DNA from: a virus
Taxonomy: Duplodnaviria > Heunggongvirae > Uroviricota > Caudoviricetes
Virus record (IMG/VR): IMGVR_UViG_2974696732_000001
Direction: 5' to 3' (one strand)
DNA: 10,779 nucleotides
The position numbers and the translations under genes were made by a program. Shown here one piece after another: positions 541 to 10,779 of this stretch. The first letter of the stretch is position 1. Every line of letters begins with the position of its first letter. The notes beneath the pieces were generated by a model. That model ran no database searches. It was not told where the DNA came from and was given only the letters and a program-made list of their open reading frames with translations.

Positions 541-572
541 AAAAGCCCACACCAAAGTGTGGGCTTATTTTT
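541..572. terminator. Intrinsic terminator, possibly bidirectional
   Basis: AAGCCCACAC-CAAA-GTGTGGGCTT 10-bp stem (543-566), followed by ATTTTT on + and a short T tract on - (AAAA at 541-544). Confidence 0.7.
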
Positions 573-729: not shown

Positions 730-744
730 TGTCCGGGGCGGACA
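730..744. repeat. 15-bp palindromic box
   Basis: TGTCCG-GGG-CGGACA, perfect match to consensus. Confidence 0.9.
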
Positions 745-752
745 ATTGAAAG

Positions 753-831
753 GTCCCTGGGGAGAGGCCGACCTTCCTCTAATTAAGCCCTCGCCAGAAT
801 GACTGATAGGGCCCCCAGGGACACACTTTAT
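753..831 (-). ncRNA. Candidate structured small RNA (three-way junction)
   Basis: Directly downstream of promoter 838-866. Outer stem GTCCCTGGGG/CCCCAGGGAC (753-762/813-822) encloses hairpins AGAGG/CCTCT (763-780) and GCCCT/AGGGC (787-812). No listed ORF. Ends uncertain. Confidence 0.5.
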
Positions 832-837
832 ACTTCT

Positions 838-866
838 ATGTTAGCAAGGCAGTGTTACCTTGTCAA
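838..866 (-). promoter_or_regulatory. Housekeeping-sigma promoter (ncRNA candidate)
   Basis: TTGACA (861-866) -17- TAACAT (838-843) with extended -10 TGC. Confidence 0.75.
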
Positions 867-2613: not shown

Positions 2614-3060
2614 TCAGTAGGCCGCGTCCAGCAGGGCACGCTCCCAGTCGGCCAGGTACATGCCGTTCAGCTTGGCCACGTAGGCGTCCACGATGTCCTT
2701 GGAGTCCTTGAGACCCAGACCCGTCTTCTCGCGGAGCTGCTTGATGCACTGAATCTTCTTGTGGGAACCGACCTCACGAACGATGTCCTTGACCAGCTCC
2801 TCACCCTGCGCCTTGACGCGCTTCTCGATGTCCCGGAGACGGGTCAGCTCCCAGCTCGTGGGCTGCTCGGCGTCGGCCTTGCCGGAGGCGTAGCCGTTCT
2901 TGTGGCCCTCGTTGTAGCCCTTGTCCTCGGCCACCCGCTGGACCTCGATGTGGTGGTCCATCATGCGACGGGCCAGACGCATCGCCTGGTCGAAGCTCAT
3001 GTGCGGCTGCTCGTCGTGCAGCATGACCAGGTAGACGGCGAGGTTGACGTTGGCGCTCAT
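2614..3060 (-). CDS. Protein with ribosomal bL12 (L7/L12) C-terminal-like segment, 148 aa
   Basis: Residues 101-125 KKIQCIKQLREKTGLGLKDSKDIVD match the bL12 CTD helix pair; RBS GGAG; high-GC3 codons. Confidence 0.8.
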   Translation of the reverse strand: MSANVNLAVYLVMLHDEQPHMSFDQAMRLARRMMDHHIEVQRVAEDKGYNEGHKNGYASGKADAEQPTSWELTRLRDIEKRVKAQGEELVKDIVREVGSHKKIQCIKQLREKTGLGLKDSKDIVDAYVAKLNGMYLADWERALLDAAY

Positions 3061-3106
3061 GTTAGTCTCCGTTTCTCAGGGGGTCCGTCCCCCTTTCGAT
3101 GTTCTA

Positions 3107-4421: not shown

Positions 4422-5156
4422 CTAAGCCTTCCTGCGCTTAGGAACCTTAGAGGCGAATCGGATATCCGCCTTACCAAAGATGCAAAGGCCACACGTCACA
4501 CATGCGCCTCCATCCTTAGTGATAAGGGGAATGCGCTTGGCATTCTCAGGGCAGATAGCGCCAGGCTTACCAGTTTCGGTAAGCATGAATTCCTTGCCCT
4601 TTTCGTGAGTCTCGTCAAGGTAGGCAAGACGCACAGACGGATATTCCTTTTGCGTTTCCAGCGCCTTTTCCTTGTTCTCACTGTCTACACTGAGATACAC
4701 AGAGAGATTGGGCAGACCGTAGATGAATCCCACGTACTCGAAAGAGCGCGTGTAAATCCAGAATTGCACATCCGGAAAGGATTCACAGGTCATTTCGATG
4801 GCCTCTGCATAGGTGGCAGAGAAAATGTCACCATCTGCGTGCCAGCGGAATACCTTGGGAACGTTGTGCTTTTCGCATTCCTCTCGGAACTCACTCACCA
4901 TTTCGGCAAGCAAGTAAACCATTCGAATGAGGCTTGCGTCTTTCAGCAATTCCCAATTGTGCAGGGCAAGGTCACGGAATGCCGGGTATTGCTTTTCCAG
5001 CTTACCGGCATAGCAGACCGTCTCACACACGCCGGTCGCGCCAGGGCAGGAATACGCCTTGCCACTGGGCAGGGAGAATGCGTTTTTGATGAGAGACTGA
5101 GTGCCAGCACCGTTTGCACGATTGGCAGTCTTACGGTCGTGCGAGCGCTTGAGCAT
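4422..5156 (-). CDS. GP88-like Cys-rich (putative Fe-S, radical-SAM-like) phage protein, 244 aa
   Basis: Start moved to ATG 5156 (RBS GAAAGGA). Motifs FSLPSGKAYSCPGATGVCETVCYA, FRWHADGDIFS, WIYTRS, NLSVYLSVD, CPEN..ACVTCGLC. Confidence 0.75.
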   Translation of the reverse strand: MLKRSHDRKTANRANGAGTQSLIKNAFSLPSGKAYSCPGATGVCETVCYAGKLEKQYPAFRDLALHNWELLKDASLIRMVYLLAEMVSEFREECEKHNVPKVFRWHADGDIFSATYAEAIEMTCESFPDVQFWIYTRSFEYVGFIYGLPNLSVYLSVDSENKEKALETQKEYPSVRLAYLDETHEKGKEFMLTETGKPGAICPENAKRIPLITKDGGACVTCGLCIFGKADIRFASKVPKRRKA

Positions 5157-5472: not shown

Positions 5473-5518
5473 GGTGATTCTCCTTCTCTAGGGGGTGTTT
5501 CCCCCTTTCGATACCCTA

Positions 5519-7257: not shown

Positions 7258-7302
7258 GGTGCATCCTCTCTTCCGGGAGCTTTTCTCCCTTTCGATGCTC
7301 TA

Positions 7303-10713: not shown

Positions 10714-10779
10714 GCGACAGAATGTCAAGGGGTATGGGCGCACTATTTGGATTGTTACAAAGGTATGCGAAGCATGTAT

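Follow-up and report, generated by a model that had tools for sequence, protein, structure and literature searches.

A predicted structured RNA gene with its own promoter in the terminal repeats of cluster BE Streptomyces phages

The terminal repeat and its early array

The window (the whole stretch of DNA analyzed, 10,779 nt) was 99% identical over its full length to the right end of the Streptomyces phages Bartholomune and PinkiePie, and its positions 400 to 1400 matched the left end of the same two records at 99.9%. Because it matches both ends of those records, the window should represent one whole direct terminal repeat; judged by these matches, it is the complete 10.8-kb direct terminal repeat of a cluster BE1 Streptomyces phage (Samistivirus, Stanwilliamsviridae), starting approximately at the left end of the Bartholomune record (base 2; window position 400 is record position 399). 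Phages of cluster BE are siphoviruses of 131 to 134 kb with defined ends and direct terminal repeats of about 11 kb (PMC5764925). The GenBank record carries no annotation in the first 877 bases, and gene 1 occupies 879-1088 on the minus strand.

Within the repeat, early cassettes follow one another leftward, each ordered as gene(s), a GC hairpin with a UUCG-type loop, the palindrome TGTCCG-N3-CGGACA, a promoter, and the next gene; besides the intergenic copies of the palindrome counted in Table 1, a 17th match in the window sits within a coding region. The last cassette consists of a promoter, a three-way junction, an 8-nt tail, and a palindrome (744-730), and no gene lies between that palindrome and the genome end in the window. 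A predicted RNA gene would fill the payload slot of this cassette (promoter, payload, palindrome). Gene 1 (879-1088) stops 12 nt ahead of the -35 hexamer and has neither a hairpin nor a palindrome of its own, so that any read-through mRNA from it would likewise end in the junction.

Between the last palindrome and the genome end, several short elements were observed on the minus strand. A block directly after the palindrome (708-729) holds stop codons in all three frames, with a core, CUAACUAAC, that 16 of 17 aligned phages share unchanged; the block resembles either a protein-binding site or a natural stop to translation in all three frames at the array end. Positions 570-700, between the RNA unit and the terminator, hold conserved blocks with direct TGTCCG half-sites and repeated TTTACGA units; such blocks were found in phage Mandalore too, despite its lack of the RNA, and are probably DNA-level signals of the genome end. 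The terminator at 543-566 has an A run before it and a T run after it and probably shields the genome end against transcription from either direction. Beyond it (470-535), there are two copies of a box, CCCAUAUACAU(A/G)GAACAAC, whose core, CTATATACAT, is conserved in BE1 phages.

Elsewhere in the array, the early transcripts at 3070-3100, 5480-5512, and 7265-7296 (minus strand) open with AUCGAAAGG and a short hairpin (GGGGG, loop, CCCCC). This pair of elements, placed ahead of the real ribosome-binding site, reads as a 5' leader module that is common to several cassettes. Three proteins encoded on the minus strand gave domain matches: gene 3 (1405-2418), a DUF932 protein (E = 8e-47) whose homologues occur in over 500 records of actinophages and other phages; a 244-amino-acid protein (4422-5156) of the mycobacteriophage GP88 family (E = 8e-57); and a 148-amino-acid early protein (2614-3060) in which Pfam recognises the C-terminal domain of ribosomal protein L7/L12 (E = 9e-8, above the cut-off). 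The last of these, a phage copy of a translation-GTPase-recruiting domain within a host-takeover region, merits separate attention, and it has homologues in phages LukeCage and Mandalore.

Promoter, fold, and covariation of the RNA unit

The earlier note had described a minus-strand promoter of the form TTGACA-17-TGC-TAACAT. The site (866-838) reads as stated, matches the consensus at 10 of 12 positions plus the TG, and is among the two best sites found by the promoter scan in the window. Its perfect TTGACA is not the sole one pointing leftward, as had been claimed, since a second lies at 10728 (minus strand); the scan calls no promoter there. The promoter ends 15 nt ahead of the junction fold (822-753) on the same strand, and a transcription start near 831 follows from the usual 7-nt distance to the -10 hexamer. 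Host RNA polymerase carrying the principal sigma factor would start there, from the best promoter of the leftward early array. The quality of the promoter and its position in the early array suggest that the RNA is made early and in quantity.

TABLE 1 Features of the RNA unit and of its immediate surroundings (window coordinates unless a phage locus is named)
Feature	Position	Strand	Remarks
-35 hexamer TTGACA	861..866	-	Promoter scan; identical in 35/35 copies
Extended -10, TGC-TAACAT	838..846	-	17-nt spacer to -35; TGn-TAnnnT in 35/35 copies
5' leader from predicted start (~831)	823..831	-	Last six bases, AAGUGU (828-823), conserved
P1, 5' strand, GUCCCUGGGG	813..822	-	Pairs with 753-762; 100% of cells paired, 5/10 pairs with double changes
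P2a, 5' strand, GCCCU	808..812	-	Pairs with 787-791; 100% paired, 2 pairs covary
Internal loop AUCA	804..807	-	Nearly invariant; faces a single purine at 792
P2b, inner helix: GUCA, apical loop UUC, UGGC	793..803	-	U.G invariant; apical loop variable
P2a, 3' strand, AGGGC	787..791	-	Pairs with 808-812
Junction linker UUAAUU	781..786	-	Variants among phages: UUAAAU, UUAAAA, UAAUG
P3 hairpin: AGAGG, 8-nt loop AAGGUCGG, CCUCU	763..780	-	GGUCGG invariant; 2 pairs covary
P1, 3' strand, CCCCAGGGAC	753..762	-	Pairs with 813-822
Single-stranded 3' tail, CUUUCAAU	745..752	-	Invariant; 3' edge of the conserved unit
Cassette-end palindrome TGTCCG-N3-CGGACA	730..744	-	One of 16 intergenic copies in the window
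Two-way intrinsic terminator	543..566	-	Terminator scan; position conserved, stem covaries among phages
Inserted ORFs	L019:548-673 (Pepperwood), L016:506-628 (StarPlatinum)		Mutually unrelated; same insertion point after the tail

Copies were collected from 18 representative phage loci, three IMG/VR contigs, and 11 metagenome contigs; 35 copies, of which 23 were distinct, were compared. In all 35, spanning Samistivirus, Karimacvirus, and the metagenome contigs, TTGACA-17-TGn-TAnnnT stands 15 to 24 nt ahead of P1, with the -10 hexamer varying as TAACAT, TAGTAT, TAGACT, TAGCAT, or TACACT. Between phages, the sequence of the spacer changes, and so does the gene ahead of the promoter, of which at least four unrelated kinds occur; the stop codon of that gene overlaps the -35 hexamer in some cases. 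Hexamers that stay constant while spacers and neighbours vary point to a selected promoter and a self-contained transcription unit.

The junction described in the earlier note (a 10-bp closing stem, two hairpins, and a UUAAUU linker) was recovered exactly as the RNAfold minimum-free-energy structure of 745-835 (-38.8 kcal/mol; z = -3.6 against dinucleotide shuffles, of which 1 in 200 was equally stable), and it was retained when a 297-nt transcript model was folded. The transcript would be about 87 nt long, or about 290 nt if the conserved terminator forms its 3' end. The transcript core (822-753) is thus predicted to fold into the 10-bp closing stem, a bipartite arm (P2a, AUCA opposite a purine, P2b), and a short arm with a GGUCGG loop. 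Across the copies, the refined anatomy comprises P1 of 10 bp, P2a of 5 bp, AUCA opposite one purine, P2b of 3 to 4 bp, a variable 6-nt linker, P3 of 4 to 5 bp with the loop A(A/U)GGUCGG, and the invariant tail CUUUCAAU. The P3 stem pairs 780-776 with 767-763, its first pair being absent in 12 of the 23 distinct copies.

Covariation was counted on the 23 distinct sequences. The proposed stems are kept among homologs: 97.4% of the cells for the 20 core pairs hold a standard pair, compensatory double changes occur in 9 of the 20, and one pair shows five pair types. When the 3' partners were slid by 1 to 3 columns, pairing fell to 34-63% and the double changes nearly vanished, and none of 500 column shuffles matched the observed covariation score. 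One detail of the original fold did not survive the comparison, namely, the inner CAG/CUG hairpin, which pairs in only about two thirds of the sequences; a shifted helix, GUCN/NGGC (803-800 with 796-793), is favoured in its place. A mutual-information scan gave a single extra covarying pair, 29:35, inside the large hairpin-1 loop (AU, 12; CG, 6; GU, 1; other, 4), and it is this pair that defines the shifted helix with its invariant U.G. Including the inner helix, 24 pairs were 97.1% paired and 10 had double changes.

The same alignment bears on strand and coding. G.U pairs occur at 9:76 and 16:69 and, invariantly, at 27:37 (two P1 positions show G.U); read from the opposite strand, each would become an A.C mismatch, which argues that the sense strand is the one read from the promoter, i.e., the minus strand. 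The claim that the unit lacks an open reading frame (ORF) also held, since indels of 1 to 2 nt in the loops, together with the pairwise pattern of substitution, exclude a coding frame on either strand. Two small frames were considered and rejected: a 15-codon GUG-initiated frame inside the RNA and a 22-codon frame beyond the palindrome, each of which is disrupted by indels or loses its start codon in relatives.

A covariance model built on 19 sequences scored all 35 copies at 94 to 114 bits. The alignment is shallow, consisting of close relatives with an effective sequence number of 1.18 in the model, and the invariance of the loops may therefore partly reflect shallow divergence. Two further ideas about the unpaired bases failed in relatives. 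A pseudoknot between loop 2 (GAAGG) and the tail (CCUUU) is broken by an A-to-U change in Karimacvirus without compensation, and the same check offered only AU-rich candidates for base pairs joining the tail to the leader or the junction. A codon-like (tRNA-Ile) function of AUC in the internal loop is contradicted by changes of its A to U and G in two lineages.

Taken together, these comparisons strongly support the prediction of a structured RNA without an ORF, driven by its own promoter and belonging neither to the tRNAs nor to the hammerheads, and the locus is very probably a real structured RNA gene.

Distribution and comparison with known families

BLAST recovered the element from 77 records of Streptomyces phages; for the Karimacvirus phages (cluster BE2), which are more distant, only the body of the RNA aligned. 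In the complete Bartholomune and LukeCage records, the covariance model found one copy per repeat, or two per genome, and no further match elsewhere. Phage Mandalore (Coruscantvirus, same subfamily) has a gene 3 homologue that is 70% identical and an array end of the same kind, with a plain hairpin followed by TTTACGA repeats; the promoter-junction unit is absent from that array end, and the model gave 0 matches in the whole record. The absence of the RNA from Mandalore marks it as an accessory payload, outside the core machinery of replication or packaging.

In Pepperwood and StarPlatinum, an ORF of 40 to 41 codons with a ribosome-binding site lies between the tail and the palindrome, the two being independent insertions (Table 1). 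As both begin right after the tail, CUUUCAAU would mark the 3' edge of the conserved unit, and their position downstream of the junction indicates that the junction is not an absolute terminator. The StarPlatinum ORF has a CxxC motif, and the Pepperwood insert carries its own hairpin.

Searches for host mimicry returned no homolog. A first exact-pattern scan of 185,579 prokaryote genomes gave 0 matches, and a second pattern scan of the same genomes gave 48, none of which fits the covariance model; five Streptomyces matches among them fall in a conserved coding gene. With a loose pattern, IMG/VR yielded 118 loci, of which only the known copy in EGole fits the model. Four public sequencing runs gave only sparse Logan contigs, and the sole piece over the element (668-869, depth 3) begins upstream of the -35 hexamer and is accompanied by similar scattered pieces elsewhere, so that it represents DNA or is uninformative.

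An Rfam scan of positions 1-2000, including matches up to E = 10, placed nothing on the element, its weak matches all falling on the terminator at 543-566. This agrees with the earlier exclusion of a tRNA cloverleaf and of a hammerhead core: ARAGORN found no tRNA at the element, the hairpins have no T-loop sequence, and the junction's 6 unpaired bases vary. The RNA is not mentioned in the description of cluster BE (PMC5764925) or elsewhere in the literature searched. It constitutes a new family, without an Rfam entry and without annotation in every GenBank record inspected.

Several known classes were tried and rejected. A self-cleaving ribozyme, the hammerhead included, is contradicted by the empty Rfam scan and the variable junction (6 unpaired bases), and a three-way-junction riboswitch aptamer (purine class and others) by the same two results together with the lack of a downstream ORF in most phages. 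A Y RNA or YrlA does not fit: there is no Rfam match, P1 is fully paired, and the phage Ro60 gene is also found in Mandalore, which has no such RNA. A canonical intrinsic terminator is not called at the element by the terminator scan, the tail CUUUCAAU has 4 U in 8 nt, and ORFs follow in two phages. Mimicry of the ribosomal GTPase-centre junction was considered on account of the L7/L12-like neighbour; the L7/L12-like gene also occurs where the RNA is absent, and the conserved loops of the GTPase-centre rRNA, as we take them to be, have nothing in common with those seen here. Ro60 and the L7/L12-like protein are encoded in all three genomes compared, Mandalore included, and neither gene therefore covaries with the presence of the RNA.

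Candidate functions and meaning

The reading that best accounts for these observations, to which we assign a probability of roughly 0.55, is that of a small RNA gene of a new family, expressed early and acting in trans through protein binding. The gene would be present twice per genome, with one copy in each terminal repeat, and its own strongest promoter, its double dose, and its accessory distribution all fit an RNA that acts in trans through recognition by a protein. So do the invariant letters of the internal loop, loop, and tail, which stand beside freely covarying stems, whereas the variable junction argues against a ligand pocket. The partner would most likely be bound through the invariant loops and the tail CUUUCAAU, and the role would be accessory, in host takeover or counter-defence, rather than in core replication or packaging. 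The mode of action itself, as a trans-acting protein-binding RNA, we hold tentatively, at slightly less than even odds. A narrower version, in which the RNA is a phage decoy, made in bulk from the DNA that is expressed first, that captures a host protein (for instance a nuclease of a defence system, a ribonuclease, or a factor of transcription or translation) via AUCA, GGUCGG, and the tail, is unlikely in that specific form.

The nearest published parallel is found in the Kayvirus phage K, for which RNA-seq detected small noncoding RNAs in the long terminal repeats (PMC9241854). Those RNAs are likewise early, promoter-driven, and located in a long terminal repeat with host-takeover genes (PMC9241854). 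They are unrelated to the present RNA in sequence and host, and they were recognised from RNA-seq, without a conserved covarying structure, whereas the RNA described here is defined by structure and conservation.

Among the alternatives, the first to be weighed is a cis-acting RNA end element, i.e., an elaborated form of the cassette GC hairpin that serves as a partial terminator and exonuclease shield of the last early mRNA or as a 5' stabiliser of the RNA behind it; we consider it unlikely, with perhaps somewhat better than one chance in five. The junction occupies the slot ahead of the TGTCCG-N3-CGGACA palindrome in which the other cassettes have a simple hairpin, the palindrome follows 8 nt after it, and gene 1, 12 nt ahead of the -35 hexamer, has no hairpin of its own. 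The tail behind the 10-bp GC stem contains UUU, and in Pepperwood and StarPlatinum the junction forms the 5' leader of a small ORF. Those other cassette ends, however, consist of plain GC stems capped by UUCG-type loops and lack promoters of their own, whereas the present structure is branched, has invariant loops, and stands directly behind a dedicated near-consensus promoter in 35 of 35 copies. Neither a terminator nor a block to nucleases needs invariant loops and an invariant tail, and in Mandalore a plain hairpin suffices. The terminator scan does not call the element, and the downstream ORFs in two phages oppose efficient termination. Among cis-acting systems, the HK022 put RNAs are antiterminators of about 70 nt that come right after an early promoter and need no ORF of their own. 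They consist of two hairpins without a closing stem and act on downstream genes, whereas most of the phages compared here have no downstream gene and a conserved terminator follows.

A base-pairing regulatory RNA, in which CUUUCAAU or one of the loops would pair with phage or host mRNAs, appears improbable, although the 8-nt tail never varies and stays single-stranded in all folds. The sequence CCUUUC (which includes the last base of P1) is complementary to GAAAGG, the motif that opens several leaders of early transcripts and ribosome-binding regions of the window. Against this, the best leader match has an A.C mismatch, and the perfect complement, ATTGAAAGG, is not enriched once the DNA of the RNA gene itself is excluded, with 2 sites in Bartholomune and 1 in LukeCage against 1 to 2 for the backward control. 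A role against ribosome-binding sites was rejected on the same ground, the complement of the tail not being enriched in the phage genomes. Nor is the host lineage known to have an Hfq-type chaperone.

A genome-end RNA, either a packaging RNA like the pRNA of phi29 (RF00044) or an RNA that primes or forms R-loops in replication or end processing, is very doubtful. The phi29 pRNA is transcribed toward the genome end from an early host-type promoter close to that end. The RNA described here resembles it as an ORF-less phage RNA with a three-way-junction core, encoded about 750 to 830 bp from the physical left end and transcribed endward from an early host-type promoter (866-838), and the adjoining repeat arrays are typical of end regions. 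The two differ in that there is no similarity in sequence or covariance model, including no match to the Rfam pRNA model, and in length (about 70 to 87 nt, versus 120 to 174 nt for pRNA). Contact between the loops could involve only GGC/GUC pairs, which are weaker and not extended in Karimacvirus, and no loop-loop covariation was found, the loops being invariant. The phage is a 131-kb siphovirus, and the RNA is missing from Mandalore, which represents a sister genus of the subfamily and whose end region is of the same kind. In BE phages the ends are defined, carry direct repeats of 11 kb, and are not protein-primed (PMC5764925).

A DNA-level site, in which nested inverted repeats would be bound by the reader of the TGTCCG palindrome or would extrude as a cruciform, is hardly credible: the outer P1 bases UGUCCC and GGGAC do resemble palindrome half-sites, but three nested helices covary, G.U pairs are tolerated asymmetrically on one strand only, and a conserved promoter is directed into the structure.

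Phage host-takeover regions read almost wholly as sets of small proteins, and here one cassette appears to carry a structured RNA. The comparative support is unusually clean (promoter in 35/35 copies, compensatory changes in 9/20 core pairs), and testing should be easy because the unit is short and self-contained and a sister genus does without it. If it were only an RNA end cap, it would show cassette boundaries evolving into complex structures. If it were a protein decoy, the few RNA-based counter-measures known from phages would gain a further example, and an RNA-based effector of host takeover or counter-defence would be carried by these phages as a swappable early cassette.
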